A stretch of 64,000 nt of DNA from a virus. Below the pieces are notes generated by a model. The model was not told the origin of the DNA. It searched no databases and was given only the letters and a program-made list of their open reading frames with translations. The translations under genes were made by a program, and so were the position numbers. The stretch's first letter is position 1. Every line of letters starts with the position of its first letter. Positions 1,314 to 19,690 of this stretch are shown one piece after another. The stretch lies in the IMG/VR virus record IMGVR_UViG_3300045988_183936, positions 2,626 through 66,625 of that record, one strand, 5' to 3'.

Positions 1314-1343
1314 AAAAAGCTCCCTTCGGGGAGCTTTTTCTTT
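1314..1343 (+). terminator. intrinsic terminator
   Basis: aaaaaGCTCCCttcgGGGAGCttttt hairpin followed by a T-run. Confidence 0.7.
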
Positions 1344-1354
1344 ACCTGAAATCA

Positions 1355-1549
1355 TTGACAAAACATCAAACTGTGGTAGTATAGAATTATAATTACGAAG
1401 CTATTTTTATAAAGGAGATTATCTCCGTTTTCCAAGTCACCTTAAAGAATCAAGACAGTTATCCCAATCTTGGGATGGCTGTCTTTTTATATATATACAT
1501 ACATTTGTGTTCCCGTAAGTCCTTCAAGGCTGGGAGAAAGGAGAAACAA
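1355..1549 (+). promoter_or_regulatory. repeated promoter-leader-terminator cassette, copy 1
   Basis: TTGACA(1355)-16nt-TGgTAGTAT extended -10. Leader palindrome GGAGATtATCTCC (1414-1426). Terminator hairpin agacagttatccc/gggatggctgtct (1453-1484) plus TTTTT. Conserved downstream block catacatttgtgttcccgtaagtcctt...gggagaaaggagaaa, then a GTG start. Confidence 0.75.
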
Positions 1550-2713
1550 GTGAAAACCAAAGTTATCTTCGAGCGCACTGGCAAAAACATGGAGGCTATC
1601 CGTGAGGAAGTCATCGTCAACGGCGAAATCACTAAGGATGGTTTTGCTGTAATGATGGCAGCTACCAACGGCGATGGCACATTCGTACCGGCTGTTGTCG
1701 GTCTCCATGAGGTGAACGCTGCTGATGAGGCTGTGTATGCGAAGCTGGTCGGCATCGAATCCTGCGAAGCTAATCTCATCGCAACGTGCAGCGCGGACGT
1801 CCTCGTGGGGCGTTTCGTGAACGCGAACGGTGCGTGGGACGAGCTGCCCGTCAAGGGTCAGGCGCAGAGTGGTACTGTCCGTGTCGGCATCCCCTTTGTC
1901 TACGGACTCTACAACTTTACGCCGGTACGTAACGGGGTGAACAAGAAGATTTCGTGGTGGATTTCCCGTCAGGGTATCGGCCACGCGCTTTACTGCTTCA
2001 CCTCCAACTACACCGCCGAAATCGGCTATCAGTTCCAGCACATCAGCAGCTATATCAGTATGTTCGAGGCACAGTTCGGCACCATCGACGGTAAGCCGGC
2101 GTCCGTACAGATTCCTGCTGGTGGGCGGAATGTGGATGCCATGCGCTTTAAGGTCTACCCCAATGTGGGTCCTGCCTACATCGTCGAGGTTCCCTCCGGC
2201 GAGGTCGATAACATCGACGAGTGGCTGAGTGAGCACATGGAGAGTGATGCCACATTCGTGGAGCTGAAAAGCACCGATTCCACCTCCAAAAACACGTCCT
2301 CTGACGACAATGCCGACATCCGCGTGCGGGATATCTGCGGCGATAAGTGCCAGTGCTATGTCTACTACGACAAGGCTTCCGGACAGGACAAGATGCGTTT
2401 TTGGCTGAGAGCCGCGTTCCCCCGTCCCGCCGATATGATTGAGGTACGCACGGCGCTGAAAGCGAACTTCGGCAGCGGCGCCGGCACATTCACCTATGAT
2501 GATGGTTCCTTCGATGTCATCATTGAGAAGCTGGTGCCGTTCGCGTTCTCCAATGCAGATTTGGAGAACTTCGCTGACAATGCAGTCACCCTCATCGAGA
2601 ATGTCCTGCATACCGAGGCTACCAGCGTGAGCTGGAACGCCGGCCATTGTGAGAGCGATGATGATGCGCTGCTTACTGAGAAAGAGCGGAGCATCGTAAG
2701 CCGGCAGGCGTAA
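1550..2713 (+). CDS. hypothetical protein (about 388 aa, GTG start)
   Basis: RBS gggagaaaggagaaacaaGTG. First gene after cassette copy 1. The antisense 424-aa ORF was rejected. Confidence 0.55.
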   Translation: MKTKVIFERTGKNMEAIREEVIVNGEITKDGFAVMMAATNGDGTFVPAVVGLHEVNAADEAVYAKLVGIESCEANLIATCSADVLVGRFVNANGAWDELPVKGQAQSGTVRVGIPFVYGLYNFTPVRNGVNKKISWWISRQGIGHALYCFTSNYTAEIGYQFQHISSYISMFEAQFGTIDGKPASVQIPAGGRNVDAMRFKVYPNVGPAYIVEVPSGEVDNIDEWLSEHMESDATFVELKSTDSTSKNTSSDDNADIRVRDICGDKCQCYVYYDKASGQDKMRFWLRAAFPRPADMIEVRTALKANFGSGAGTFTYDDGSFDVIIEKLVPFAFSNADLENFADNAVTLIENVLHTEATSVSWNAGHCESDDDALLTEKERSIVSRQA

Positions 2714-2726
2714 GGAGGTGTCTTCA

Positions 2727-2879
2727 GTGAACACAGTGATTTTTCCTGAGGACGTCGCCAACGCGGTACAGTCGGCTTACCTCCAAACCGAAGACGAGGA
2801 TGTCAGAAATTTGCTTTTGTCCGTCGGCGCCGAGCTTCTTGATATCTCTCCCGATGAGATGTTTGAGATGATTCGTTGA
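2727..2879 (+). CDS. small hypothetical protein (50 aa)
   Basis: GTG start 8 nt after an AAGGAGG RBS. Not in the ORF track because it is under 60 aa. Confidence 0.35.
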   Translation: MNTVIFPEDVANAVQSAYLQTEDEDVRNLLLSVGAELLDISPDEMFEMIR

Positions 2880-2904
2880 CCGTTGAAAGAAAGGAGAAAC
2901 AGAA

Positions 2905-3174
2905 ATGACCCTGAAGGAGTTTGTTGAAAAAAACGGTAAAGAGAGATGCGTTAGCAAGATGAGACAGTGGCAGTCTGTTACCATTGGCTTCATCGACGCC
3001 GATGGAAAAGACGATGAGACGGAATTCGACGTATACCGCGTGGACACTTCCGCCGGTCTTGAAGAGCTGGCGCAGCTTTTCAACGATTTCTGTGCTGAAA
3101 ACAATTTCCCCACGAACACGGTGCAGTCGGTTCGTGTGGTGAAGAGCGCGGACGACTACTCTGACCTTGCGTAA
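2905..3174 (+). CDS. hypothetical protein (89 aa)
   Basis: gaaagaaaggagaaacagaaATG RBS. Confidence 0.55.
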   Translation: MTLKEFVEKNGKERCVSKMRQWQSVTIGFIDADGKDDETEFDVYRVDTSAGLEELAQLFNDFCAENNFPTNTVQSVRVVKSADDYSDLA

Positions 3175-3206
3175 ATGCTCTGAAAAAAAGAAAGGAGAAA
3201 ATAATC

Positions 3207-4052
3207 ATGGATTCCAAGAAAAAGACAAACAAGACTCGTTGTAGGGCTTGCCCCGCATCCGGTTTTTGCTCCGATGTCTGCTACAATAGGGATGTTCCTG
3301 ATGCCACCTGTGCTCATGCCGTGAAGTACGATAAGCTGAATAAGCGTGTCGCTTCGCTGGAGGGACAGGTTGAGACGGTGAAGTTCATGCCGCTGAAGCA
3401 GCGAGACGCCGAGCTGGAAAAACTGTGGGATGAGTTCACGGATGTCCCGATGAATCCGGACACCGAGAAGATGGAGGATGCGTTCCTCCACTTCCCCGCC
3501 GGCACTCCTCGTGAAGACATCTGGCACTGGTTCGATGAACGCTATTCCAAGGGCATCGCAGCGTTGCTGTATGGCCGGGGTGAGGACAACACCTCCACCA
3601 TCGCTGCGCTGACCTACCTGAATGAGCTTTGCTGCGAGTGCGATTCTGAACTGTGCGCCTTTGCGGATGCTTCCGGCATCTGCCGTGCCCCGTTCATCAC
3701 CGGAGCAGCACCGCGTATCCGTGAGGATGGTTGCGATGATTTCTGTGGCGTAGGCAATGGCTTCTGCGCTCCCCGCGCAAAGGTCGAAAACTCAGAGGCT
3801 GGTCGCTACATGGTATTCATGGATAGCGCCTACATCCGAGACGCACAGATTTACTGCGGCAACCTCAACGAAGATGTCAATTCCGTGGCAAATGAGGATA
3901 GCTGGCGTGATTCCAGCGGTCCGATTTTGCTTATCGACAAGGAGGTCAGCAGCCTTGATGAACTGCGGAACACCGTGAAGGAGATATATCCTGAAGTGGC
4001 GTTCGCCGCTCTGAATGTCATGCGGGTCAGCGGCAAAGCCGTCCGTTTGTAA
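3207..4052 (+). CDS. hypothetical Cys-rich protein (281 aa)
   Basis: aaagaaaggagaaaataatcATG RBS. Multiple CxxC pairs. Confidence 0.55.
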   Translation: MDSKKKTNKTRCRACPASGFCSDVCYNRDVPDATCAHAVKYDKLNKRVASLEGQVETVKFMPLKQRDAELEKLWDEFTDVPMNPDTEKMEDAFLHFPAGTPREDIWHWFDERYSKGIAALLYGRGEDNTSTIAALTYLNELCCECDSELCAFADASGICRAPFITGAAPRIREDGCDDFCGVGNGFCAPRAKVENSEAGRYMVFMDSAYIRDAQIYCGNLNEDVNSVANEDSWRDSSGPILLIDKEVSSLDELRNTVKEIYPEVAFAALNVMRVSGKAVRL

Positions 4053-4066
4053 GGGAGGTGCCCACA

Positions 4067-4519
4067 ATGGATGCCTTTTTGGAAAAGCTCAAAAAGTCTT
4101 TTGTCGAACGTTTTACGTCTTTGATGGAAGACAACGGCGACTCCGTGACGGAAGCTGCAAGGATTATCGGTGTCGCTCCGGAAGCTGTCTCAACATGGCT
4201 GCGTGGGCGTATCGTGCCGAGCATTGATTACTTCGCTAAAATTGCGGATGTTTACAATGTCTCTGTTGATTATCTGCTGGGTCAATCTGAGACCCAGCAG
4301 GTAAAAGACATCCCCGATGAGGCGGCATATCCGGCTGTTCCCGCACGAGCCTTCTACAACTCGGCGTTGCAGCTTATGGCAAAGCAGAATTCTCTCATTG
4401 CCCAACAGAATGCATTGCTGCAGCAACAGAACACCATTCTGGCGGCGATGCAGCAGAAGGCCACTGTTGAGAACACATCTCTGCCTTCGACAGATGTGCC
4501 TCTTGGTTTGCCATTTTGA
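4067..4519 (+). CDS. XRE-family helix-turn-helix transcriptional regulator
   Basis: HTH signature TEAARIIGVAPEAVSTWLRGRIVPSIDYFAKIADVYNVSVDYLLGQ. RBS aagggaggtgcccacaATG. Confidence 0.6.
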   Translation: MDAFLEKLKKSFVERFTSLMEDNGDSVTEAARIIGVAPEAVSTWLRGRIVPSIDYFAKIADVYNVSVDYLLGQSETQQVKDIPDEAAYPAVPARAFYNSALQLMAKQNSLIAQQNALLQQQNTILAAMQQKATVENTSLPSTDVPLGLPF

Positions 4520-4592
4520 GCAGAAAGGAGATTTTATAACCTTGGAGGGGGCTGTTGTTTGCAGCAGTCCTCTCTTTCTATACATAGTCTGT

Positions 4593-4622
4593 TTGACAGA
4601 GAGCGTACAAATGGGCTATAAT
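4593..4622 (+). promoter_or_regulatory. sigma-A-type promoter
   Basis: TTGACA-17nt-TATAAT upstream of the 4653 gene. Confidence 0.55.
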
Positions 4623-4652
4623 AGAGTTGAAAATTGAAAGGAGGATACAACT

Positions 4653-4868
4653 ATGGAAGAATTCGTAAAGGGCGTATCCAAAACTTGCCTATATGAAGAC
4701 CCTCACTGTGACGAAGAGGATGCGGAAATGGACCGTCGGATTTCGTCGGTAGCCTTTGAAGCCTATCAACGGGCAAAAATGAAAGGTATTCCTGTTGCTC
4801 GCTATGATGCAGAGAAAAAGTGTGCCTATTTACTGTATCCGGATGGGAGAATCGAGTATGTCAAATGA
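4653..4868 (+). CDS. small protein (71 aa), possible antitoxin partner of the downstream zeta-like kinase
   Basis: gaaaggaggatacaactATG RBS. Its end overlaps the start of the P-loop protein gene. Confidence 0.45.
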   Translation: MEEFVKGVSKTCLYEDPHCDEEDAEMDRRISSVAFEAYQRAKMKGIPVARYDAEKKCAYLLYPDGRIEYVK

Positions 4869-5538
4869 GAAACAGCGGAAACCTTGCATTATCGTTTTCG
4901 CTGGGCCTAACGGGTCAGGTAAAAGCTCACTTACAAGTAGAGTAGATATACTACCCCCGTATATCAACGCAGACGACATCAAAAAAGAAACTGGATGCAG
5001 CGATTTGGAAGCGGCACAGAAGGCTGATGCAATGCGCTTACAGTGTGTAGAATGGGGCGAAGATTTTACCTTCGAGACAGTTTTGTCCACGAATAAAAAA
5101 CTGGAATTTCTAAAATATGCAAAAGAGCATGGGTATTTCATAAAAGGCTTTTTCGTTCTTACGAAAGACGCATCCGTAAACGTACTTCGTGTATGGGAAC
5201 GTGTTCAATCTGGAGGCCACGACGTACCTGAAGAAAAGATTCGGTCTCGGTACGAAAAGTCTTTGGCAAGGGTTCAGGCCTTTGTTGACCTATGCGACAT
5301 CTGCCATATTTATGACAACTCCGGCTCTTCAACGGATAGAATATTCAAGAAGGCACATGGCGACACCTATAAATGCAGGGAAAATGCTTTCTGGAGCAAA
5401 CAGGAAATCTGTGACCTCGTAGGCATCAAAAGCAATAATGTTGGAGAACTTCTGCTTTCCGACTATGAGAAGAAGCTCTGTAATTCACTTAATAGTGCTA
5501 CTGAGACTGAGGAGGACGTAGATAGAAATGACAAGTAG
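4858..5538 (+). CDS. zeta-toxin-like P-loop kinase (AAA/zeta family)
   Basis: Walker A FAGPNGSGKSS. ETVLS, GYFIKGFFVLT and RVWERVQSGGHDVPEEKIRSRY resemble the zeta-toxin/UNAG-kinase fold. Confidence 0.45.
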   Translation: MSNEKQRKPCIIVFAGPNGSGKSSLTSRVDILPPYINADDIKKETGCSDLEAAQKADAMRLQCVEWGEDFTFETVLSTNKKLEFLKYAKEHGYFIKGFFVLTKDASVNVLRVWERVQSGGHDVPEEKIRSRYEKSLARVQAFVDLCDICHIYDNSGSSTDRIFKKAHGDTYKCRENAFWSKQEICDLVGIKSNNVGELLLSDYEKKLCNSLNSATETEEDVDRNDK

Positions 5539-6238
5539 CCTTGAGGTATTACGCTCTCATGCTATCTACATCAACCCGTCATTCAGCGAAAAGCCTATTA
5601 AGATACCTTCACAGATGTATCCGCTGACGGGGACAATGGAAGTGTTTAGCTACGGCAACACACTTCCATTTCCCTCAGGTGTAGAGACCGACACCATTCG
5701 ACAGGCCTTCGATGCCACGGAGGTCGATGTCGGCTACTGCTATCAGAACACCCAGCGCATTCTGGACGCTCTGGTTGCCGCAGGCGTGAAGAACGCCGTT
5801 CCGTATGCCGGCTGGCTCTTCGTAGGCGATGCCGTCCCTACCCACCACAGCTTCATCGTCGTAGATGGCAAGCATATCATCGACCCTCTCATTCGATTCG
5901 ATAAGATGAATCTGGAAGCCTATGCCAACGAGGATGGAACCAAGACACCGGATTCAATCCGTGGGGCTTTCACGGACGAGGTCATCGAGATGATGAAGCG
6001 TCCCCATTCCGAAGTTATGACATTCGGGCAGGCCAGTCCGTTGAACTACTATGTGGCCGCAAAATGCAAGCCTTCAGAGGCGGTGGCGCGGTTCAGAAAG
6101 CTCATGACAGCTTTTCCAAAACATCCTTCGTATCAGAATATCAGACCGGATGGGACGAACAAGACGCAGACGCTTTTCTACGAAAAGCAGGGCAAAGATA
6201 TGTATGCGCCGAAAATCAAACCGAAAGGAAGTCTGTGA
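5528..6238 (+). CDS. hypothetical protein (236 aa)
   Basis: Start overlaps the previous stop. Same strand block. Confidence 0.5.
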   Translation: MTSSLEVLRSHAIYINPSFSEKPIKIPSQMYPLTGTMEVFSYGNTLPFPSGVETDTIRQAFDATEVDVGYCYQNTQRILDALVAAGVKNAVPYAGWLFVGDAVPTHHSFIVVDGKHIIDPLIRFDKMNLEAYANEDGTKTPDSIRGAFTDEVIEMMKRPHSEVMTFGQASPLNYYVAAKCKPSEAVARFRKLMTAFPKHPSYQNIRPDGTNKTQTLFYEKQGKDMYAPKIKPKGSL

Positions 6239-6240
6239 GA

Positions 6241-6462
6241 ATGGATTATCCATATATCCGCGCATGGAACAGGCTCATGAACGCCACTTCGGACGTCATC
6301 GAAAATGAAGTCGCGGCTGCCCGTAAAGAGAAGGCTCCACCGACTTCAGTTTACAAGCGTAAGGATGGTGTGTGGGAGATTTTCGAGGGAATCGTCCGTG
6401 GCGAAACGAAGCAGCAGCTTGCTGAACTTGTAGCAAAGATGGAAAAGCGCTCTAAGAAGTAA
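6241..6462 (+). CDS. hypothetical protein (73 aa)
   Basis: Internal ATG in ORF 6064..6462, immediately after the previous stop. Followed by a terminator. Confidence 0.4.
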   Translation: MDYPYIRAWNRLMNATSDVIENEVAAARKEKAPPTSVYKRKDGVWEIFEGIVRGETKQQLAELVAKMEKRSKK

Positions 6463-6465
6463 TTA

Positions 6466-6494
6466 AAGAGGCCCGAAAGGGCTTCTTTTTTTTT
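6466..6494 (+). terminator. intrinsic terminator
   Basis: aagaGGCCCgaaaGGGCttc followed by T9. Confidence 0.7.
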
Positions 6495-6506
6495 GGCTCT
6501 GTAATG

Positions 6507-6707
6507 ATTGACAAAATATCAAACTGTGGTAGTATAGAATTATAATTACGAAGCTATTTTTATAAAGGAGATTATCTCCGTTTTCCAAGTCACCATACGT
6601 AAATTCAGACAGTTATCCCGTTTCGGGGATAGCTGTCTTTTTTATATATTTTCATACATTTGTGTTCCCATAAGTCCTTATCATAGGCAGGGAGAAAGGA
6701 GAAATTC
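6507..6707 (+). promoter_or_regulatory. repeated promoter-leader-terminator cassette, copy 2
   Basis: Identical promoter TTGACAaaatatcaaactgtggtagtatagaat. Leader hairpin cagacagttatcccgtttcggggatagctgtct (6606-6638) plus T-run, with compensatory changes relative to copy 1. Confidence 0.75.
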
Positions 6708-7271
6708 ATGACTGACTATCCTAATGAAATTGCCCGTTTAGACGCACAGCGTCGAAAGAATCACGATGCCACCGCCTATGAGGAGCTTGACAAGGCCTAT
6801 ACCGAATCCGGTCATACCGTGTTCATTATGGCACTCAACGCCCTCATTTCGCTGGGACGTGATACCGTCGCGGCCATGGCGCATCCTGCGGCTATCGCTG
6901 CGACTATCCAAGGGAACATCTTTTCCGAGGATTTCAAGCTGGAGGTCGGACGTATCGCACTGATGATGGCAAACGCCGACATCGACGTTCTGTTGGCCGT
7001 TATTCAGCGCATAGTCGTCCCCTTCACTGACCCTCAGGGCAAGCGCATCCCGTTCCTGCACCCCAACGGCGACGAGGAGGACGTCTGCCCCGTGTGTGGC
7101 GCCGAGGTCGAATATCAGGGCGACCGTGAAATCGACTACAACGATGGTACGGAGGTGAGCTGGGAATGCCCCGTCTGCAAGGCGTTTGGCAAGGCACTGT
7201 ACCACGACACCTTCCTCCAGCACGATTCTGTGATTGATGGGAATGGTGATTGCGTACACGACCGTGTCTGA
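6708..7271 (+). CDS. hypothetical protein with C-terminal CxxC...CxxC zinc ribbon
   Basis: gggagaaaggagaaattcATG RBS. CPVCG...CPVCK motifs. Confidence 0.55.
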   Translation: MTDYPNEIARLDAQRRKNHDATAYEELDKAYTESGHTVFIMALNALISLGRDTVAAMAHPAAIAATIQGNIFSEDFKLEVGRIALMMANADIDVLLAVIQRIVVPFTDPQGKRIPFLHPNGDEEDVCPVCGAEVEYQGDREIDYNDGTEVSWECPVCKAFGKALYHDTFLQHDSVIDGNGDCVHDRV

Positions 7272-7313: not shown

Positions 7314-7937
7314 ATGACCAAGAACTTCAAGACGGTCGTTGAAGCCCTGAACGAGACCGGCTTCTATCTGGCCTTCTGCAATCTTGTCGTAAACAAGATT
7401 GTAAGAATCCCCATCAAGAAAATTATCTCCGCTGCGGAGGGAAACATTGATGGCATTTCCAACTGGCTGGAACACGCTGCGAAAGATGCCTGCTCCGCCT
7501 TTAATCAGGACGTCCCCATCGACGACCTGATTATGAAGCTGGAGGGCGAGATTCTGCGTGTCACCCATTTCTGCTTTGACCCCCGCATCCGCGAGGCTTT
7601 CAAAGAGATGGGCTATGAGCGCATCGCAGAGGTGTACGAGTCCCGTGGCATCGACATCGAGGACACCGGTATGTTGGAGAAGGTCAAGAGCGTGTTCTGT
7701 ACCTACGTCTTTCTGCTGAACCAGCAGGATAAGACGCTTGGTATCGACCTCTCCGTTGTCCCTTCTGTGGGTTCCTACAGCATTCGTTTCAACGAGTGTA
7801 TTCAGGACTCCATCGTATTCAAGGACGAGGCGGCAGCGAAAGCATTTGCCAAGGCAAACGGATTGGAGAAGCCGTTCATTTCCTTCTACAAGATGACTGC
7901 TTATTGGCAGCCCTTTGAGGAAGGAGATGCGGTGTGA
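7314..7937 (+). CDS. hypothetical protein (207 aa)
   Basis: agaagaaaggagaaagcaccATG RBS. Confidence 0.55.
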   Translation: MTKNFKTVVEALNETGFYLAFCNLVVNKIVRIPIKKIISAAEGNIDGISNWLEHAAKDACSAFNQDVPIDDLIMKLEGEILRVTHFCFDPRIREAFKEMGYERIAEVYESRGIDIEDTGMLEKVKSVFCTYVFLLNQQDKTLGIDLSVVPSVGSYSIRFNECIQDSIVFKDEAAAKAFAKANGLEKPFISFYKMTAYWQPFEEGDAV

Positions 7938-8377
7938 GCACTTCTCAGACCACTTCCCTGCCGCTTGCTGCTGTCCGCATCAAGAATGCACGATTGTCTC
8001 TGGAACTATCCCAGAGCCAGCTTGCAGAAAGGTGTGAGGTGACACCGCAGACCATCTACAAGTATGAGTCTGGGCGAGTGGAGAATATCCCCCTGAAGAC
8101 TTTGGAACGCTTCGCTGAGGTGCTGGGCGTCTCCCCTGCTTATCTGGCGGGCTGGACGAACTCACCTGCCGGCACCAGCGTTCTGGATATTCAGGTACGA
8201 GGAGCGACTCTGCTCTGTGCCACATGTCCCATCTGCGGAAGCCTGAAGTTCGGCCCGAAGCACGGAAGTGCCTATGGACCCGAAGCCCGTTGCTCCGACT
8301 GCGGTACAACATTCCGCCTCGATGCCGACCAGTTTCCTCTGAAGACTGTTCGGCTTGGTATGTCACTGCTGGCCTGA
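7934..8377 (+). CDS. XRE-family HTH regulator with C-terminal Cys4 zinc-ribbon
   Basis: LSQSQLAERCEVTPQTIYKYESGRVENIPLKTLERFAEVLGVSPAYLAGW, then CATCPICG...CSDCG. Confidence 0.55.
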   Translation: MSTSQTTSLPLAAVRIKNARLSLELSQSQLAERCEVTPQTIYKYESGRVENIPLKTLERFAEVLGVSPAYLAGWTNSPAGTSVLDIQVRGATLLCATCPICGSLKFGPKHGSAYGPEARCSDCGTTFRLDADQFPLKTVRLGMSLLA

Positions 8378-8411
8378 TAGCCAGCTTTTTTGAAAAGAAA
8401 GGAGAAAAAAC

Positions 8412-10022: not shown

Positions 10023-10194
10023 GAAGGCTGATGACCGCGTATACAAAGTCAAAATCCAGCGGCCAATCTTCCCTCCCGATGCTCCGTTTCTGGCAATGAG
10101 CGAGTGCGGCTGCATCCAGCCGACACTTCTTCAGGCAACACCGGAGCTAAAGGGCCTGCTTGGGGAAAGGTTGACTATTCCAGCTTTAGTGTAG
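10018..10194 (+). CDS. small hypothetical protein (58 aa)
   Basis: ATGA overlap with the previous stop. Confidence 0.3.
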   Translation, partial: SKKADDRVYKVKIQRPIFPPDAPFLAMSECGCIQPTLLQATPELKGLLGERLTIPALV

Positions 10195-10199
10195 GGTCT

Positions 10200-11575
10200 A
10201 TATAAGGAGAATGAATAATTCTACAGAAAGGAGTGTGAACATTGGAAATCTATAGGGCTTACAAGCTGTGCATCAAACCCACAGAAGCTCAGGCAGCGGA
10301 GATTGAGAACACCTTCCGGTGCTGCCGGTTCGTATGGAACCATTTCCTTGAGCGGAAGTCCAAGGCCTACCAGCGCCGAGGCGAAAGCCTCTCATACTAC
10401 GGTATGAAGAAACTCCTGACGGAGATGAAGGTCTATCTGCCTTGGCTGGGTAGCTGTAACCGGCACGCCTTGAATTATACGATACAGAACCTCTGCGACG
10501 CCTACGACGGGTTCTTCCGTCGCTGCAAAAAAGGCAAAGGCAAGGTGGGATATCCGAGATTCAAGGGACGGAAGAATCCTAAGCAGAGCTTTACCACAGA
10601 TGGCTCGGTCATTGTGACCGAGAAGTTTGTCCAGATTCCCTCTATTGGGAAGGTAAAGCGCGGTAAGGATAAACGTGCCGTTACCGGGGTTCCGGTAAAT
10701 GTCACGGTGTCCCGCAGTGCCTCCGGTAAGTATTGGGCGTCCGTTCTTTGTAAAGAGAAGGTTGACCCTCTGCCGGAGCTGAACGCGGAGGTTGGTATTG
10801 ACGTTGGGCTCCATGTATTTGCCGCCGACAGTGATGGCAACACCTACGAAAACCCTCACTGTTTAATCCATAGTGAGAAGCGGCTGGCTCGTGAGCAGCG
10901 TAAGCTGTCCCGTATGCGGAAGGGTTCTTCCAACTATGAGAAGCAGCGGCTCAAGGTAGCAACCATCCACGAACGTGTTGCAAACCAGCGTCGTGACTAT
11001 ACCCACAAGCTGAGTCGGAAACTCGTTGACGAGAACCAAGTCATCGCAGTGGAAGACCTCAACATCAAAGGGATGGTCAAGAACCACAAGAAGGCAAAGG
11101 CTGTGGCTGATGTCTCTTGGGCTGAGTTTTTCCGGATGCTGGAGTACAAGTCACTGTGGGCGGGACGCACATTCATCCAAATCGACCGGTTCTATCCCAG
11201 CAGCCAGACTTGCAGCTCTTGTGGCTACAAGAACGCCGCTGTGAAAGATGAAAAGGTTCGGGAATGGACCTGCACCCAATGCGGCGCACACCACGACCGC
11301 GACATCAATGCGGCAATCAATATTTTGAGAAAGGCAAAGGATACCTGCACCGCAGCGTAACCGGCATACCCTACTACGGCAGGATGAGCCGAAAGTTACG
11401 CCTGTGGAGACTGGTAAGACCTCGAACCTCACGGCGAGAGGCACGGTCTGCGAAGCAGGAATCGACCGGACGTGTGTACCTGAGAATTACCAATGCGAAT
11501 GGTATGTTCTTTCATGCTATGCATACGGAACACACAAAAGGTTGAATATCCGAACGCACGGGCGACGACTGGTGA
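10200..11575 (+). mobile_element. IS200/IS605-family (IS1341-like) TnpB-only insertion with a putative 3' omegaRNA region
   Basis: Complete tnpB is flanked by non-coding ends. No tnpA was seen. Boundaries are approximate. Confidence 0.5.
10242..11360 (+). CDS. tnpB: TnpB (OrfB) RNA-guided endonuclease, IS200/IS605 family
   Basis: N-terminal YKLCIKPTEAQ...RFVWNH. RuvC-like segments. C-terminal zinc finger CSSCG...CTQCG...DRDINAAINI. TTG start after an AAAGGAG RBS. Confidence 0.8.
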   Translation: MEIYRAYKLCIKPTEAQAAEIENTFRCCRFVWNHFLERKSKAYQRRGESLSYYGMKKLLTEMKVYLPWLGSCNRHALNYTIQNLCDAYDGFFRRCKKGKGKVGYPRFKGRKNPKQSFTTDGSVIVTEKFVQIPSIGKVKRGKDKRAVTGVPVNVTVSRSASGKYWASVLCKEKVDPLPELNAEVGIDVGLHVFAADSDGNTYENPHCLIHSEKRLAREQRKLSRMRKGSSNYEKQRLKVATIHERVANQRRDYTHKLSRKLVDENQVIAVEDLNIKGMVKNHKKAKAVADVSWAEFFRMLEYKSLWAGRTFIQIDRFYPSSQTCSSCGYKNAAVKDEKVREWTCTQCGAHHDRDINAAINILRKAKDTCTAA

Positions 11576-12177: not shown

Positions 12178-12196
12178 AAATGAAAGGAGAAAAAGA

Positions 12197-13603: not shown

Positions 13604-13641
13604 AAACTTTTCACAGCAAAGCACTGATTTTTCCACTAAGA

Positions 13642-13672
13642 AAAGCTCCTTCGGGGGCTTTTCTTTTTTTCT
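13642..13672 (+). terminator. intrinsic terminator
   Basis: aaaaGCTCCttcgGGGGCtttt plus a T-run. Confidence 0.7.
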
Positions 13673-13756: not shown

Positions 13757-13872
13757 TCCCGACTAAAATCTCAAATTTTTATTCGGTTTTTCCCGACTAA
13801 AGTTTAGTTCTTAAAACTCTGATTTCCCGACTAAAATTGCAATTTGAAAATTCAGAAATCCCGACTAAAATC
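13757..13872. repeat. four direct iterons TCCCGACTAAA(A/G)T phased at exactly 34 bp
   Basis: cccgactaaa begins at 13758, 13792, 13826 and 13860, inside a 330-bp non-coding stretch upstream of cassette copy 3. Confidence 0.8.
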
Positions 13873-13918
13873 AAAAAACAGTGCAAATAGAGTAAACGCA
13901 ATTTGATACCTAAAACGA

Positions 13919-14096
13919 TTGACAAAATATCAAACTGTGGTAGTATAGAATTATAATTACGAAGCTATTTTTATAAAGGAGATTATCTCCGTTTTCAAGT
14001 CACCACATAAATTCAGACAGTTATCCCAATCTTGGGGTAGCTGTCTTTTTTTATATATTTATTGCATTTTTCGACAACAAAGAAAGGAGAAACACC
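13919..14096 (+). promoter_or_regulatory. repeated promoter-leader-terminator cassette, copy 3
   Basis: Same promoter and GGAGATtATCTCC leader. Hairpin cagacagttatcccaatcttggggtagctgtct (14015-14047) plus T8. Lacks the catacatttgtgttccc block. Confidence 0.75.
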
Positions 14097-14279
14097 ATGA
14101 AGTACAAGAAGCTCACCAAACATGAGCGAGACACGCACCCGTCCATTCACTGTACGGGCAGCGTGCGCGGCATGAAGGAACGTGGGTTGTGGGACAAGGA
14201 TGCCGAGTGTGTTCGCTGCGGCAACCACATCTACAACCTGTCCGTTACCATCCCGCCCTACCCTGCTGATGGCTGCTGA
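14097..14279 (+). CDS. small hypothetical protein (60 aa)
   Basis: aaagaaaggagaaacaccATG RBS. Confidence 0.45.
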   Translation: MKYKKLTKHERDTHPSIHCTGSVRGMKERGLWDKDAECVRCGNHIYNLSVTIPPYPADGC

Positions 14280-14312
14280 TGCAATCGACTTCAAAAGAAA
14301 GGAGAAATTATT

Positions 14313-14618
14313 ATGAATACATCTACGCTGCATTTCATCGACTGCACTCTGTCCACGTATCGGAACGAGCTGCTGTTCAACCCTTCCAACAAGATGCCTG
14401 CCCGTGAGGTCAACGACGCACTGAGCAAGCTACTGGAGCTGCCGGAGGTCTGCGGTAAGGTGCGCGATACCCTGACCACCCACCTGAACGACCGGCGTGG
14501 CTATGCCCGTGATTTGAGCAAGCCCGCGCCCACTGTCGCCGAGGTGATTACGTCCATGGAGTTCGCACTGGGTGCCGCATATGCGGCAGCAATGAAGAAG
14601 AGAGGTGAGCAGAAGTGA
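14313..14618 (+). CDS. hypothetical protein (101 aa)
   Basis: aaaagaaaggagaaattattATG RBS. Confidence 0.5.
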   Translation: MNTSTLHFIDCTLSTYRNELLFNPSNKMPAREVNDALSKLLELPEVCGKVRDTLTTHLNDRRGYARDLSKPAPTVAEVITSMEFALGAAYAAAMKKRGEQK

Positions 14619-14824
14619 GTAAGCATCGTTGGACTATCGAGGAACTGAAGAACGTCAATGACGCTCAGTTCGCTATGGCGATTCTGATGGAACGCCGCAG
14701 TGAGTTATCGAATCCCTACACCCCGTTCGCACAGCGCCTTACCAGCGTCATCAATACGCTGACGGACATGGCTGTGGATGGCGGGCTGACGGACGAAGAA
14801 AGGAGCAAGAACAATGGCTGTTGA
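14615..14824 (+). CDS. hypothetical protein (69 aa)
   Basis: Translationally coupled by a GTGA overlap. Confidence 0.4.
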   Translation: MSKHRWTIEELKNVNDAQFAMAILMERRSELSNPYTPFAQRLTSVINTLTDMAVDGGLTDEERSKNNGC

Positions 14825-15182
14825 GATGAGACTCTACCGCGTGCCTATTATCGGTAGTAATGCCGAACGGCGGCACGGAAAGGTGGTGGATGAGGTCACG
14901 GTCAAGGTTGGAACCAAGTGGCTGACAGACAATAGAGACTGTCGATACTACAAGGCTCCTTCCGAAGATGCGAACAGAAATCCCTACTTCCAGCAGAACT
15001 CCATGTACTGGAGTACAGATTACCGGCTGTATCAGACGGAACAGGCTGCCAAGGACTATCACCATCAGGCGGAATTGCTCATAGCTCTTCGCAGAGCCGT
15101 TGGCGACTTCGGCTTCAACGCCCCGTTGACCGTGTTGGAGAAGGTCATGGACATTCTCAAGGAAGGCGGGTGCCTGAAATGA
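14814..15182 (+). CDS. hypothetical protein (122 aa)
   Basis: Overlapping start. Same strand block. Confidence 0.45.
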   Translation: MAVEMRLYRVPIIGSNAERRHGKVVDEVTVKVGTKWLTDNRDCRYYKAPSEDANRNPYFQQNSMYWSTDYRLYQTEQAAKDYHHQAELLIALRRAVGDFGFNAPLTVLEKVMDILKEGGCLK

Positions 15183-15958
15183 GCACAAAAATCTTTGACG
15201 CTTGGCGCATCAACTCTACCGACATCGGGGAGTTGGTCAAGCTCGGCAGTGAGATTCGGGAAGTGCAGCGGAAGTCTTTCGTGGACGCTGTCTACAACTC
15301 GCTCGATTTCTGCCAGCTCGCCATCATCTTCGCCAAGAAGTCTGTAGAGGATGTTGAGGAGCTCAGACCTGTTTTTGCTTCAATCGCCGCAAACGTCGTC
15401 CATAAGTGTGTTCTGATGTACGACTGGACGCCGTCTTTTACGATGACGGATGGCGCCAAAAGCTCTGCGGAACAGATTCTGCAGAAGGAGGCTCAGAAAC
15501 GGAAGATTTCATTGACAGTAGAGCAGAAGAGAAATCTGCTCGACGTTATCACTGAAATCTACGAAATCGTCTCCCGTGATTGGCAAGCGTCACTGCTGTT
15601 CCTTAGGGGCGATAATGGCAGTACCTACATGAAAGGGTTCAATCTCACCAGAGAAGCGGCCCATTTCATCGACTCCCAATATCCCCGCTTTGAGTACACC
15701 GACCAGACGGAGATGAATATTTCAGACTTCAACGAGTACACACGGCAGTACATTGACGCTGCAAAGACGGAAGAAGAACGCTATGAGAGGCTCTTGGAGG
15801 CCCAGTGCGAACGTGGAGAACTGTGGGACAAAGCATTCGCAGGCCAAAGTGTATGGCGCGATGCCGGTCTCTCCGTCTCCCTCGTGCCGGCACAGCTTCA
15901 GGAACAGTTCGTGGCTATTCATTCCATCTGCAAAAAGGTGTTCGGTGTCGAAGCCTAA
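15170..15958 (+). CDS. hypothetical protein (262 aa)
   Basis: Overlapping start. Confidence 0.5.
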   Translation: MPEMSTKIFDAWRINSTDIGELVKLGSEIREVQRKSFVDAVYNSLDFCQLAIIFAKKSVEDVEELRPVFASIAANVVHKCVLMYDWTPSFTMTDGAKSSAEQILQKEAQKRKISLTVEQKRNLLDVITEIYEIVSRDWQASLLFLRGDNGSTYMKGFNLTREAAHFIDSQYPRFEYTDQTEMNISDFNEYTRQYIDAAKTEEERYERLLEAQCERGELWDKAFAGQSVWRDAGLSVSLVPAQLQEQFVAIHSICKKVFGVEA

Positions 15959-15982
15959 CGAAAAAAAGAAAGGAGAAAAATC

Positions 15983-16624
15983 ATGGAGAATAACCAAAAA
16001 AACGCTGCGGAGGTCGAGACCAGCGTTCCTGACCTGATTCCGTCCAACTACCGCGAAAAGGCAGAAGCACTGGGCTGGGTCATCGACGAGGACAAGGTTT
16101 GCGGAGTATTCACCTTCAGGCAGGGGTCGCCTGCCGGCGAGGACTATTCCTTCGACCTGTACGCCGACGATGACTTCAGCGACGGTGTGGCTGCTGCGGT
16201 GCGCCGTGTCTACGATGACTTTGACATCGACGAACACGTTGGACTGTTCGCAGAGGCTTCTATGAGAGGTGAGTCCGGCGTTCCGAAGCTGTCGATTCTT
16301 GTCGATGACGCTAAGGAAATCGACGAGATGCTTCTCACGCTCGCCGAAGCGTTTGAAGACATCGAATCTGATACATCAGAGCGGGAGCAGAAGGCATATA
16401 CCCGCTGCTGCCCCAACTGTGGTGGCGTATCTTTCTCTGGTCATCAGGTCCTCCACATTGATGTGTTGGTTGACATCGAAACGGGAGATTTCCTCGGAAA
16501 TATCAACGACGAAATCGAATCTAACATCTACGAGTCGTCTGACCCCTACGGTCCATATCACTGCATGACCTGCGGATTTGAATGCGACAACCTTTCCGAG
16601 CTGGAAAAGAGCGAGGTGGAGTAA
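15983..16624 (+). CDS. hypothetical acidic protein with zinc-ribbon (CPNCG...CMTCG)
   Basis: aaaaaaagaaaggagaaaaatcATG RBS. Confidence 0.5.
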   Translation: MENNQKNAAEVETSVPDLIPSNYREKAEALGWVIDEDKVCGVFTFRQGSPAGEDYSFDLYADDDFSDGVAAAVRRVYDDFDIDEHVGLFAEASMRGESGVPKLSILVDDAKEIDEMLLTLAEAFEDIESDTSEREQKAYTRCCPNCGGVSFSGHQVLHIDVLVDIETGDFLGNINDEIESNIYESSDPYGPYHCMTCGFECDNLSELEKSEVE

Positions 16625-16629
16625 CTCTA

Positions 16630-16791
16630 ATGTCGATTATTCTTTACTTCGCACTGACCATTCTCGTGATGTGCGGCATATTCCTTGGCATAAGGAGACT
16701 GGACACACAGGACCTCTTGCCGCCAATCATCTGCAGCGTTTCTGTGGGCGTTATTATGGTGGAACTGTTCGCCCTTGTTCGGTGGTATTAA
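16630..16791 (+). CDS. small hydrophobic membrane protein (53 aa)
   Basis: ATG immediately after the previous stop. Two predicted TM helices. Confidence 0.35.
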   Translation: MSIILYFALTILVMCGIFLGIRRLDTQDLLPPIICSVSVGVIMVELFALVRWY

Positions 16792-16813
16792 CGGAGGTGA
16801 AGGACGTGTTCAA

Positions 16814-16982
16814 AATGCTGACGAACCCCTTGTTTATAGCCTATGTCGTTCTTATCATCGCCGCAATGGTCGTCTCAGTCATAGCCGCAAAAAAATCAGA
16901 CCAGCCAGAAATGCTTCCGGCTGCCTTTGGTACTATTGCGCTCACCATCGTTTTGGTTATTGTAGCGGTCATAACCGGTTAA
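16814..16982 (+). CDS. small hydrophobic membrane protein (56 aa)
   Basis: GGAGG RBS then ATG. Hydrophobic. Confidence 0.35.
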
Positions 16983-17050
16983 ATTAAAGCCAGCGGGAGG
17001 GGCGCTCTGCCTCTCCCCTGCTTAAAAAAGAAAAGGAAGGAGATATTCGA

Positions 17051-17269
17051 ATGGCATACAGCATTGCTGAAATCGCGGCCATCAAAGCGGAGTATCCCGC
17101 AGGCACAAGAATCAGACTGAAACACATGGACGAAAGCAAGTTTCCTGTGGCAGACGGCACGACCGGTAAAGTCACTTATGTGGACGATAACGGCCAGATT
17201 CATATGCGTTGGGATAATGGCCGCACGCTGCCGCTCGTTCCGGGCGTCGATGATTTCGACAAAATCTGA
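17051..17269 (+). CDS. hypothetical protein (72 aa)
   Basis: aaggaaggagatattcgaATG RBS. Confidence 0.45.
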   Translation: MAYSIAEIAAIKAEYPAGTRIRLKHMDESKFPVADGTTGKVTYVDDNGQIHMRWDNGRTLPLVPGVDDFDKI

Positions 17270-17299
17270 GCTGTTTTTTCAAAAAGAAAGGAGAAAAAT

Positions 17300-18341
17300 T
17301 ATGGGTAATACATCTATCAGAGCCGCTGCATCTTTCTGCAACGAGAACACGCTGGTCAAGGTCTACCGCTATAATCCTAAGTACGACAGGTTCGAGACGA
17401 CCTTCGTTCCTTTCAAGGACATCCGCAAGAGCGATTCTGTGAGCGTCTTTGCCAGTGATGGGCACGAGATGCACTTTTCCGTTCTCACAAATGCTTCTTT
17501 TAAGAAGGACGAGCGATACGGGAACGAGTGCGGTTGGTCTGTGAAAGTCACTGAGGACGGCGGCAAGACGGAGATGGTTCTTCGTCCCACCGATTTCGCG
17601 CCCTACATCATCAGCCTTTCCGTTACCGACGAAGGAGAGTGGCGCGGCTGCCGGCTACTTTTCGAAAGCGTCCTCAACGACACCGAAGCTATCGTCAACA
17701 ATATGCGGGCGCGATTCGAGCCGCGTGTTGCGCCGGAAAACACCTGCGGGCGGCATTCCGACACAGTTGCGGCCATGGCGAAGAGAGACCTTACTCGTGA
17801 GTGGACGGAGCAGTTCGGCTTCCGGCTCATTTCGGACAGCGTAAACTTCGCCCAGTGCAGTGTGAAGGACATTCTCTCTGATAAGTTCTTCAATCCCCCT
17901 GCCATGGAGTTGACGTTCTTCGCCTATTCCGACGGCGAGTATTCAGCGTCCCCCCTGTTCTTTGCCAAACTGCCCGATTTGGGCGAACGGTACAACAAGC
18001 CTGAGGGACGTGCTGCAATCGCAGAACTGCTGCAGAAGCTGGATGAGATGTACGGCGACCTGCCTGAAGACACAACAAAATGGGCTCTGGAGTATCAGCT
18101 TTGGGCTCGTATGCTGCTGGCAGAAGGTGCGGTCATGCTGAATCCGAAGCACCTCGACCTCCCCGACTGCGCCTACGAATTCAAAACGCTGGCTTTCGGT
18201 AATAAAATGCTGAAAGACAGCGGTGACGGTATTGCGTGGGCAAAGGCTGTCAAAACACCTATCAGCGTAATCGCCGAGGCGTGGGAGAATGACATGAGTG
18301 AGTCCGGCGATGAGGCTTTTACCTGCATCGTGACGGGCTGA
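17300..18341 (+). CDS. hypothetical protein (347 aa), paralog A
   Basis: aaaaagaaaggagaaaaattATG RBS. Shares FFAKLP..LG, EYQLWARMLL.EGAVMLNPK and DILSD(K/R)FF blocks with the next gene. Confidence 0.55.
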
Positions 18342-18355
18342 AAGGAGAAAAACAT

Positions 18356-19408
18356 ATGGATATGCCGATTTCGAACAAGCGAAAGCTGCACTGCGACGAG
18401 AACGTACTGGTCCACATCGTGCGTTACTGCCATGATACGGATGACGCAGATGGCGACGGCGTCAGAGAGGTGGAAATGTACGTCCCCTTCAAGCACATTT
18501 GCAAGGGCGATGCCATTGATATTCCTGATAAGGACACCGACGATGCCTTCAGAACAACCGCCTATGCTGCGGAAAACGCTTCGTACAACGAGGCTAAGGC
18601 GGGTGGTTGGTTTGTGCCGGTCGCCTGCACTGGGCAGAAAGATTACATTCTGAAGCCCGACGATTTCGCACCTTGGCTCGTGACACTGAGCGTTGTGTTC
18701 ACGAACGGGTCGTCCTGCAAGCTCTTTTTCGAGTGCGTGGAACGAAGCGAAGAGAAGCTGCGGGCAAACATCCGCAGAATCTTTGACGATGTGCCGACGC
18801 TGCGGCATGAGCTGGGCTTCGTTGCCCTCGTCCGCCATATGGCATGGAAGTACCTCACACCGGAAAGAACGGAGCCTCTCGGCTTCAGATTCCTTTCGGA
18901 TGATGTCGTCTGGAGCAACTGCAAAGTGAAGGACATCCTTCCTGACCGGTTCTTCGCGGCGGCTGACATGAAGCTGACGTTTTACGCCTATGCGGAAGAT
19001 GAGTATTCTGGGAATCCTCTGTTCTTTGCAAAGCTGCCGTATCTCGGTACGCATCACGGACATCCTGAAGGTTGTGTGATTTGCGCTTCCATCCTGCGGA
19101 AACTGGATGAGCTGTATGGCGACCTGCCGACGGAAGCGTCCCGTTGGTCGCTGGAATACCAGCTCTGGGCGCGTATGCTGCTCTCTGAGGGAGCAGTTAT
19201 GCTCAATCCGAAGTACGTTGACTTGCGCCAAGACGGTGCGCTTGATGCGCTTCTGGAGGACATTCCGATGATTGATGGTTTCGCCGATGACGTCGCTTGG
19301 CGTCGTGTGGCAGGTGTACCCATCGACGAAATCCATGAAGTGTGGGATGCGAGTTCGGATGATGGTGTCGCTCCGTTCACCTATACCGTCCGAGCAAAAA
19401 TCCTTTGA
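18356..19408 (+). CDS. hypothetical protein (350 aa), paralog B, in tandem with 17300..18341
   Basis: gaaaggagaaaaacatATG RBS. Conserved C-terminal two-thirds, divergent N-terminus. Confidence 0.55.
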   Translation: MDMPISNKRKLHCDENVLVHIVRYCHDTDDADGDGVREVEMYVPFKHICKGDAIDIPDKDTDDAFRTTAYAAENASYNEAKAGGWFVPVACTGQKDYILKPDDFAPWLVTLSVVFTNGSSCKLFFECVERSEEKLRANIRRIFDDVPTLRHELGFVALVRHMAWKYLTPERTEPLGFRFLSDDVVWSNCKVKDILPDRFFAAADMKLTFYAYAEDEYSGNPLFFAKLPYLGTHHGHPEGCVICASILRKLDELYGDLPTEASRWSLEYQLWARMLLSEGAVMLNPKYVDLRQDGALDALLEDIPMIDGFADDVAWRRVAGVPIDEIHEVWDASSDDGVAPFTYTVRAKIL

Positions 19409-19442
19409 TTCTTTCGCTTCAAGACAAACCACATTTTTTCAA

Positions 19443-19474
19443 AAGAAGCTCCTTCGGGAGCTTCTTTTTTTTTA
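19443..19474 (+). terminator. intrinsic terminator
   Basis: aagaAGCTCCttcgGGAGCTtc plus T9. Confidence 0.7.
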
Positions 19475-19486
19475 CAGCAAAAGCGA

Positions 19487-19690
19487 TTGACAAAATATCA
19501 AACTGTGGTAGTATAGAATTATAATTACGAAGCTATTTTTATAAAGGAGATTATCTCCGTTTTCAAGTCACCACAAAGAATCAAGACAGTTACTTCCCTT
19601 TTCTGGGAAGTGACTGTCTTTTTCTATATATAACATTTTTTGGATTCCCGTAAGTCCTTATTACAGGCTGGGAGAAAGGAGAAAAAGACC
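19487..19690 (+). promoter_or_regulatory. repeated promoter-leader-terminator cassette, copy 4
   Basis: Same promoter and leader. Hairpin agacagttacttcccttttctgggaagtgactgtct (19585-19619), fully compensated relative to copies 1-3, plus T-run. Conserved ggattcccgtaagtcctt...ggctgggagaaaggagaaa block. Confidence 0.75.

Follow-up and report, generated by a model that had tools for sequence, protein, structure and literature searches.

The 64,000-nucleotide (nt) stretch studied here, positions 2,626–66,625 of the IMG/VR virus record IMGVR_UViG_3300045988_183936 (the window), carries four cassettes of ~190 base pairs (bp), all on the plus strand. In each of them a sigma-A promoter, an invariant leader of ~55 nt, an intrinsic terminator with a 13–16-bp stem (T1), a 5′ untranslated region (UTR) and a ribosome-binding site (RBS) follow one another in that order. 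We propose that the cassette is a cis-acting transcription gate at which read-through of T1 would be needed for expression of the downstream genes, probably by means of a putative antitermination factor, and we put the probability of this reading at about one in two. On related contigs the cassettes are found at operon heads only, with 12–14 per element.

Four near-identical cassettes in the window

The −35 hexamers of the four cassettes start at 1355, 6508, 13919 and 19487. Searches with the 33-nt promoter and with the 22-nt leader core each gave exactly four matches in the window at up to three mismatches, where shuffled sequences are expected to give none, and a covariance model of the cassette family run over the window with filters off returned the same four loci and no others. 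A first-pass annotation, made from the letters of the window, had listed these copies; three of its positions are exact and the remaining one, given as 6507, should read 6508. Its description of the promoter and leader as nearly identical holds: in an alignment of the four copies, the invariant run extends from the −35 hexamer to ...AAGTCACC (~87 nt), interrupted only by a substitution at 1364, in the promoter spacer, and by the gain or loss of a single C in the run that comes after the leader hairpin. Beyond this run there is a variable spacer of 8–14 nt, and then the terminator hairpin with its T-run. As had been claimed, copies 1, 2 and 4 have a conserved 5′UTR block, of which the RBS is the last part.

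The promoter of cassette 1 (1355–1382) consists of TTGACA (1355–1360), a 16-nt spacer and TAGTAT (1377–1382), with a Gram-positive −16 motif, TGTG, at 1372–1375. A second −10-like hexamer, a perfect TATAAT, lies at 1388–1393, which is about −1 to +5 of the predicted transcript; its counterparts in cassettes 2–4 are at 6541–6546, 13952–13957 and 19520–19525. The AU-rich leader (1389–1441) contains the Shine–Dalgarno (SD)-like AAAGGAGA, a hairpin (P1), G-UUUU-CC and AAGUCACC. P1 (1414–1426) is a 5-bp helix with a 3-nt loop (GGAGA 1414–1418, loop 1419–1421 and UCUCC 1422–1426). T1 (1452–1489) has a 15-bp stem, a 4-nt loop and a ΔG of −22.4, and its T-run is followed by ATATAT. The RBS of the first gene forms the end of the UTR block (1500–1549, CATACATTTGTGTTCCCGTAAGTCCTT..GGCTGGGAGAAAGGAGAAA), and the gene opens with GTG at 1550.

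The other cassettes are built in the same way. Cassette 2 (6465–6707) has its promoter at 6508–6535, P1 at 6567–6579 and T1 at 6607–6638, followed by the UTR block and an ATG at 6708. Cassette 3 (13919–14096) has its promoter at 13919–13946, P1 at 13978–13990 and T1 at 14015–14046; its UTR is short and lacks the conserved block, and the ATG at 14097 opens a Cys-rich open reading frame (ORF) of 60 amino acids (aa). In cassette 4 (19441–19690), the promoter (19487–19514) and P1 (19546–19558) precede a T1 (19583–19620) with a 16-bp stem and a ΔG of −26.7, and after the UTR block the ATG at 19691 opens an operon encoding AAA-like, DUF3232 and VWA proteins.

Each cassette had been said to follow directly on an intrinsic terminator. 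This is true of three of the four copies. The terminator before cassette 1 (1314–1345; 11-bp stem, ΔG −16.1) closes the upstream block after a PemK-like gene (963–1307) and, with an A-run on one side of its stem and a T-run on the other, could act in both directions; those before cassettes 2 and 4 are at 6465–6488 and 19441–19468. For copy 3 the claim fails, as the nearest terminator, which ends block 2, is at 13638–13665, ~250 nt upstream.

In all four copies the default transcript is predicted to be ~100 nt long. The T1 stems of 13–16 bp, with ΔG values of −21 to −27, are followed by a U-run, whereas the terminators at block ends have stems of 10–12 bp and ΔG values of −15 to −17. They are also far longer than the stem of the typical Bacillus terminator, at 9 ± 2 bp (PMC10325885): T1 is long-stemmed by either standard. 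In the four window cassettes the start codon of the first gene lies 51–71 nt after T1 with an RBS in between, and a scan with the consensus promoter found no promoter in that interval.

The TATAAT at −1 to +5 is unchanged in every listed leader-bearing copy of family 1 (the family to which the window copies belong), while its flanks vary, and in the sister family it is kept except for one variant, TATGAT. It is a candidate sigma-dependent promoter-proximal pause element. As a separate observation, each leader also contains a promoter-like TTTATA-16-TATAAT on the minus strand that matches consensus at 10 of 12 positions (1413–1386, 6566–6539, 13977–13950 and 19545–19518). Such a site would fire back across the plus-strand promoter, or it may merely follow from the palindromic AATTATAATT.

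T1 is selected as an RNA structure

The four terminator stems quoted in the first-pass annotation match our alignment. The covariation that it placed in the leader hairpin, however, sits in the terminator, and inside the window it is confined to copy 4, which has two-sided changes and two extra pairs; copies 1–3 differ from one another by one-sided G-U/A-U changes only. Related copies gave strong covariation and bore out the view that the terminator hairpin is a selected RNA structure. Among 24 distinct family-1 RNAs, 99.8% of the alignment cells in P1 and T1 were paired and eight pairs had changed on both sides; none of 500 shuffles reached that pairing, and controls in which the alignment was slid paired at 46–64%. 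A sister lineage, reached via a homologue (86% identical) of the AAA-like protein, was then added to give 40 distinct sequences. Compensatory changes were found in 11 of the 13 T1 pairs, with 99.6% of cells paired; again none of 500 shuffles was as good, and slid controls paired at 45–67%. The 40-sequence alignment was fitted to the model and so is biased towards structure, but an independent MAFFT alignment gave a result that agrees.

P1 behaves differently. Its palindrome, GGAGAttaTCTCC, is invariant in the window, and among the related copies the four core pairs (GGAG/CUCC) are constant. Because these pairs never vary, constraint on structure and constraint on sequence are not distinguishable here. 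The fifth pair is A-U, C-G (in the variant leader B, described below), U.U or C.U, and is broken in 8 of the 40 distinct copies.

Selection extends over the whole of the cassette. When orthologous cassettes of the sister lineages are compared, identity is 90% in the promoter, 84% in the leader, 78% in the T1 region and 85% in the 5′UTR, against 59% at the third codon positions of the adjacent gene. As all four identities exceed this value, the entire non-coding cassette is under purifying selection. Paralogues within one genome have lineage-specific leader substitutions in common; either they have evolved in concert or they have co-evolved with a trans-acting partner, or both.

Cassettes stand at operon heads throughout the element

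The related contig IMGVR_UViG_3300029310_000398 (191,977 bp) has 14 copies of the promoter, every one of them on the same strand and at the head of an operon. The copies at 30 and 191,903, at the two ends of the contig, suggest a circular assembly. Twelve of the 14 promoters are followed by the leader seen in the window (leader A) and T1, and one by a diverged leader (leader B) and an unrelated T1. In the related leader-bearing copies that were listed, an RBS and a start codon come shortly after T1. The repeat is therefore element-wide and strictly at operon heads, rather than a genome-wide repeat unrelated to gene starts.

The remaining promoter on this contig, X1, has no leader and is followed by a GC-clamped RNA of ~190 nt closed by GGGCGCGGG...CCCGCGCCC (L063:1631–1850 and L061:1172–1390 among our loci), upstream of a gene for a signal-peptide protein and a tRNA. 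The X1 RNA had no match in Rfam and may be an undescribed structured RNA or 5′UTR element. A second variant, X2, was found on other contigs on the opposite strand. Here the promoter meets, at about +8, a 13-bp hairpin, GGAAGGACAGTCT..AGACTGTCCTTCC, with a T-run (L057:528–610 and L066:4584–4670); it precedes genes for three paralogous secreted sortase-like proteins with a TLxTC motif.

The layout is older than the leader sequence

Distant operons (loci L128/L129, L130 and L131) were found in which the AAA-like protein is ~38% identical and lies in AAA-VWA-x-ERF contexts. Each of these has a TTGACA-N17-TAnnnT promoter, a leader of 60–75 nt, a terminator with a 16-bp stem and a T-run, and a UTR of 60–120 nt. 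Their terminator stems are AAGACAG...CUGUCUU, AAGACAC...GUGUCUU and AAAGCAG...CUGCUUU, and in two of the three ATATAT follows the T-run. The leaders are unrelated, or only faintly related, in sequence to that of the window. Since operons at ~38% identity keep the layout with unrelated leader sequence, the layout itself is under selection.

The layout was absent from the neighbouring operon heads of those distant loci. The proposed gate is therefore old at the AAA-VWA operon, and in the lineage of the window it has spread to 12–14 operon heads. In relatives at 67–68% identity, contigs break inside the cassette, as expected of an assembly repeat. Pattern scans intended to extend a third lineage (L101) found nothing.

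Cassettes are the boundaries of shuffled blocks

The order of blocks differs among five contigs, and seven blocks are variably present, with cassettes always at the boundaries. This agrees with the earlier proposal of insulated modules under a common control region, as whole blocks are present or absent between strains. At one locus (L026) the cassette is chimeric: the variable part of one block's cassette is joined to the first gene of the next block. On this comparison of contigs, the ~100-bp identical repeats evidently serve as homologous-recombination joints for the gain and loss of whole blocks.

A gain of another kind is the 1.38-kb insertion at 10175–11551 of the window, which is absent from a 98%-identical stretch of 3300029310_000398 (L022). 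It carries a gene for an IS605-family TnpB (OrfB_IS605 and Cas12f1-like TNB domains; ORF 10242–11360).

The leader is essentially unstructured and complementary to the RBS

By itself the leader folds no better than its shuffles (z = −0.07). The whole short RNA gave z = −4.7 to −6.1, which is due to T1 only. We found no alternative antiterminator fold, and the 5′ arm of T1 stays unpaired in RNAs truncated before the 3′ arm. A search of Rfam, which the first-pass annotation had suggested, gave no family match at gathering thresholds for the window and three loci, and a permissive scan of cassette 1 matched terminators only. A riboswitch or an alternative-fold attenuator was rejected on these grounds, and the attenuation offered by the first-pass annotation is thus unlikely in its classical form.

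Several other candidates were considered. Leader-peptide attenuation was rejected, since no ATG, GTG or TTG is within reach of AAAGGAG and one-base indels in the U/C-run between copies would break any frame. The Firmicute boxA consensus is GUUCUUUGAAAA; compared with it by eye, leader A (GUUUUCCAAGUC) matches at ~5 of 11 positions and leader B at ~9 of 14, and a boxA/boxB signal of the N/nut or rrn type was discarded. A helix closing the 5′ and 3′ ends of the leader (UUACG/CGUAA) was found in some paralogues only. Downstream of the terminator there is a weak hairpin (−4.4 kcal/mol) that shows one or two compensatory events.

In its 3′ half (UCUCC-G-UUUUCC-AAGUC) the leader can pair with the extended RBS block, GGCUGGGAGAAAGGAGA. 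In cassettes 1, 2 and 4 the duplex of the leader with the RBS of the first gene reached about −20 kcal/mol in RNAduplex, where ordinary RBSs gave −8 to −12. This leader–SD pairing is part of the minimum-energy folds computed for the full UTRs of copies 2 and 4, and the probability that the SD is paired to the leader was 0.59, against 0.31 with shuffled leaders. Elsewhere in the window, no perfect antisense target of at least 10 nt was found outside the cassettes except for one 10-mer. Because the distant leaders are without CUCC, the anti-SD pairing looks lineage-specific, and we treat it as a possible extra layer and not as the core function of the cassette.

A proposed promoter-proximal termination gate

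Of the two roles that the first-pass annotation had left open, a small RNA or a conditional gate, the evidence favours a gate acting in cis, because an RBS lies 50–70 nt after every copy with no promoter between, and because the layout is kept in distant relatives without the leader sequence. In the mechanism that we propose, the strong, near-consensus promoter would be fired constitutively by the host sigma-A polymerase. The transcript, bearing the invariant leader, would then meet the long-stemmed T1, so that by default a ~100-nt RNA would be made and the downstream genes, which encode toxins, Fic, SSB-like, nuclease and methylase proteins and many unknowns, would be off or nearly off. We infer that T1 terminates transcription in vivo and that read-through is conditional on a putative factor encoded by the element or the host. 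The factor could load on RNA polymerase at the promoter and early transcribed region, where the TATAAT might cause a pause, and/or on the leader RNA at P1 and the U-tract; within the leader, the G-UUUU directly after P1 is a further candidate pause. The scheme would follow the logic of lambda PR′–tR′ with Q, or that of N and nut. With 12–14 operon heads under such control, a whole accessory or ‘establishment’-type regulon would switch together. T1 would, moreover, shield each block against polymerases that enter it from upstream, provided that loading is confined to promoter and leader. Pairing of the leader 3′ half with the extended SD of the first gene might add a translational brake, and the ~100-nt by-product could have a function of its own, as StxS does.

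The type of antitermination is narrowed by the anatomy. The conserved signal is separate from T1, from which it is parted by the 8–14-nt spacer; T1 can be swapped, as in leader B and the sister family; and no competing fold was found. Such features would be predicted by a polymerase-modifying mechanism. Together with a strong promoter and a terminator placed before genes that lack a further promoter, they speak against a riboswitch, a ribonucleic antiterminator (RAT) and leader-peptide attenuation. What they leave is polymerase-modifying antitermination or a fixed leaky attenuator, and between these we lean, at roughly even odds, towards the former. The gate is favoured because the layout reproduces lambda PR′–tR′, including the −10-like hexamer at the start of the transcript; because 12–14 operons under one invariant control region resemble a regulon; and because promoter-specific loading would explain how T1 could both insulate and gate. 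Inside block 2, a short terminator-like hairpin (6 bp, T6) at 8368–8385, between an HTH gene (7934–8377) and the next gene, hints that read-through may need to be processive.

A number of observations weigh against the gate. Among ~115 predicted proteins from the readable part of the element, no NusG/KOW (LoaP), Q, ANTAR or CAT_RBD protein was found with Pfam, PHROGs or PADLOC. In pLS20, terminators with stems of at least 14 bp resist antitermination by conAn (PMC10325885), and on that precedent T1 looks built to resist it. Two copies of the promoter, X1 and X2, are without the leader, and not all of the distant relatives have the second −10-like hexamer. The structure of P1 is unproven, given its invariant core and the fifth pair that is often broken. 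Finally, the extreme identity of the paralogues could owe much to gene conversion.

The strong promoter and strong terminator could instead form a constitutive attenuator and insulator that works with no dedicated factor. T1 would then terminate a large and constant share of what a very strong promoter produces, so that potentially toxic cargo is expressed at a low, noise-buffered level and read-through between blocks is barred, and the leader would be kept for stability (‘STAB-SD’) or for an anti-SD role in translation. Such a device is consistent with the failure to find a factor, with the SD-like AAAGGAGA in the leader and with its pairing to the RBS (about −20 kcal/mol in three of the four first genes, use in the minimum-energy UTR folds and the probability of 0.59 against 0.31); moreover, the X2 promoter runs at once into a terminator hairpin with no leader at all. 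We nevertheless think it unlikely. Termination should be very efficient at stems of 13–16 bp followed by 5–8 U, so that 12–14 operons would be near silent, and a weak promoter would be a cheaper route to the same result. The invariant promoter spacer and TATAAT would be left unexplained, and CUCC is absent from the distant leaders although these operons keep the promoter–terminator layout. That last point bears also on the idea that the main product is the ~100-nt RNA itself, made from 12–14 loci to repress mRNAs of the element or host in trans, with the downstream genes expressed by incidental read-through. A conserved single-stranded 5′ part with an anti-SD-like seed, UCUCCGUUUUCC, ahead of a variable terminator and U-tail would suit a small RNA (sRNA), as would the complementarity to the extended RBSs of the first genes, and StxS is a precedent for a functional sRNA at a lambda-type PR′–tR′ (PMC7547250). 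A seed-driven sRNA should not, however, lose its leader sequence while the layout persists, nor should every copy stand directly before an operon that has no other promoter. Read-through transcripts seem to matter, since the UTR after the terminator is selected too (85% versus 59%), and in the window the only perfect antisense target of at least 10 nt outside the cassettes is the single 10-mer. We regard this account as distinctly improbable.

We attach similarly little likelihood to the view that the cassette acts as DNA, either as an operator platform for a repressor encoded by the element, in which case the regulon would resemble those of EGeRS2/Reg576 or KorA/KorB and be derepressed briefly after transfer, or as a gene-converted recombination joint, T1 in both cases being an ordinary insulator with no special role in regulation. 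The near-identity of paralogues and the lineage-specific changes that they have in common would be expected of such an element, as would the block gain and loss and the chimeric cassette at the repeats, and the promoter spacer is conserved (AAATATC....TGTGG). The element also encodes HTH, LexA-like and AbrB/MazE-like proteins, and there are precedents in the repeated regulatory sequences before variable establishment operons (PMC6294495, PMC8708921) and in PeSLs (PMC2839356, PMC4122927). The 5′ arm of T1 had suggested a Reg576-type TTATCCC operator, but this was rejected as a coincidence: the dual operator is absent, and TTATCCC occurs in single copies, once per T1, and is not enriched in the window (8 observed versus 4.8 expected). 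The G-U pairs and compensatory changes indicate that T1 is selected on the transcribed strand, and a pure insulator placed downstream of the promoter would silence its own operon. The distant relatives, too, keep the layout although their cassette is not repeated within the sequence read. Returning to the gate, its boldest form would be a new antitermination regulon, in which a factor with no homology to known antiterminators licenses polymerase past terminators with extra-long stems at 12–14 operon heads while the ~100-nt RNA doubles as an anti-SD regulator of these operons. We offer this combination tentatively and consider it rather unlikely as a whole.

The host element

Pfam matches in the plus-strand array include PemK-like, zeta-like and Fic toxins, an HD protein, an XRE-type HTH protein, the AAA-like/DUF3232/VWA operon and TnpB; those in the rest of the window include a type IA topoisomerase (TopoIII), an SPFH protein, a nuclease and giant thioester/SpaA/T-Q-ester adhesins. 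Related contigs encode ParA/ParB, a RepL-like protein, a serine recombinase, RecD2-like and RecG-like helicases, a YqaJ-like nuclease, an SSB-like protein, an orphan methylase, a primase-like protein, a tip pilin and sortase-like paralogues. Pattern scans for the cassette gave no match in GenBank phages, PLSDB plasmids or 185,579 species-representative genomes (two scans), and many matches on IMG/VR contigs of 47–192 kb and human-gut metagenome contigs. Homologues of the AAA-like protein are found in metagenome-assembled genomes of Oscillospiraceae, Lachnospiraceae and Eubacterium. A PHROGs scan of proteins from the window and related contigs returned almost nothing, and PADLOC gave no defence-system matches in the cargo.

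We read the window as part of a plasmid-like replicon of ~190 kb from human gut Clostridia; neither phage hallmark genes nor transfer genes were seen on the parts read, and we do not call it conjugative. The contigs come from IMG/VR, yet a reading of the cassettes as phage early promoters was rejected in view of the near-empty PHROGs result and a backbone of ParA/ParB, RepL-like, TopoIII, pilin, sortase-like and thioester-adhesin genes. The related contigs 3300029310_000398, 3300030040_000294, 3300045988_183830 and others (100–190 kb) are catalogued as viral. Such contigs may be misclassified plasmids, as they carry plasmid maintenance genes and no phage structural genes were seen in the ~150 kb read.

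Other features of the window and its relatives were noted in passing. Between the block-2 terminator and cassette 3 there are four direct repeats, TCCCGACTAAA, with an exact 34-bp spacing (13757–13869). They look like iterons or a binding-site array, and a similar TTCCCGAC occurs in the UTR of another class of cassette on related contigs. The minus strand encodes giant repeat proteins at 45931–51561 (1,876 aa) and 53351–63979 (>3,500 aa), in a region filled with repeats of ~375 and ~276 nt; of the two, only the 1,876-aa protein was scanned, and its thioester, SpaA and T-Q ester-bond domains resemble those found in Gram-positive adhesins. A tRNA-Ser (anticodon TGA) lies on the minus strand at 31138–31225, and a second tRNA is present on related contigs (L063:2831–2915). 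Cassette-driven blocks on related contigs also encode RRXRR/HNH (IscB-like) proteins (L017:9637–10914, L061:7242–8711 and L018:10043–11467). Beside these IscB-like genes there are four tandem paralogues of 340–390 aa that begin MDLxxxDT... and have no assigned function.

Relation to known systems

The closest functional likeness is to lambda PR′–tR′ and Q, where polymerase is modified at a sigma-dependent pause (PMC6606751, PMC9191641) and where the by-product is a short RNA, 6S/StxS, which as StxS has a function of its own (PMC7547250). In both cases a strong constitutive promoter is followed within 100–200 nt by an intrinsic terminator, a short RNA is the (here predicted) default, a −10-like hexamer lies early in the transcript, the sequence of the terminator is irrelevant to the signal, and read-through switches on genes, or would do so here. 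The differences are that there are 12–14 gates here and one in lambda, that the context is Gram-positive and plasmid-like, that the gate here is a prediction from sequence, and that nothing in the Q system corresponds to the conserved leader RNA. A Q-family protein was not among the Pfam matches of the ~115 proteins scanned from the part of the element that could be read.

EGeRS1 and EGeRS2, found in the pLS20 family and, as Reg576, in p576, resemble the cassettes in being repeated control sequences before variable operons of mostly unknown function on Gram-positive plasmids. EGeRS2 has a strong sigma-A promoter, EGeRS1 blocks read-through, and operon content is mosaic between plasmids (PMC8708921). 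There is, however, no sequence similarity, and the cassettes have no dual TTATCCC-nn-TTATCCC operators. EGeRS1 is 420–750 bp long, GC-rich and without a constitutive promoter, and neither type has the promoter–leader–terminator layout. The PeSLs of T4-like phages are also repeated terminator–promoter composites in one orientation that bound blocks of novel genes, with indels and replacements (PMC2839356, PMC4122927). A PeSL is a terminator and then a promoter only, set in a hyperplastic region of the phage genome and reading straight into the genes; in the cassettes a leader and a second, stronger terminator follow, and replicon type and host differ as well. Similar in kind to the PeSLs are the CUP repeats of IncN leading regions, which Delver and Belogurov reportedly described in 1997.

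Element-encoded read-through of terminators that insulate or silence the element's own genes is also known from conAn of pLS20 and canT of Tn916. The conAn2 RNA is ~300 nt long, with a GC-rich region and SL1, and lies in single copy after the conAn1 gene at the start of the conjugation operon (PMC8191782). canT is ~450 nt, has multiple stem-loops and lies in single copy at the start of a long operon (PMC11658703). In contrast, the leader described here is ~55 nt, ~30% GC, essentially unstructured and multicopy, with no gene between promoter and leader. The cassette does not qualify as conAn, canT, EGeRS1, EGeRS2/Reg576, Q or nut when each is judged by its defining features. By analogy it would work most like the PR′–tR′ gate, be organized like an EGeRS regulon and evolve like the PeSLs.

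The cassettes show identical regulatory repeats driving the modular exchange of blocks in plasmids, and they explain why such elements assemble poorly from metagenomes. The long T1 stems bear on what makes terminators resistant or sensitive to antitermination. If the gate works as proposed, the late-gene gate of lambda would have a multi-copy counterpart in a Gram-positive setting, ‘establishment regulons’ would have a third type of control sequence beside EGeRS1 and EGeRS2, and a single switch would control the whole variable cargo of a large and common mobile element of the human gut.

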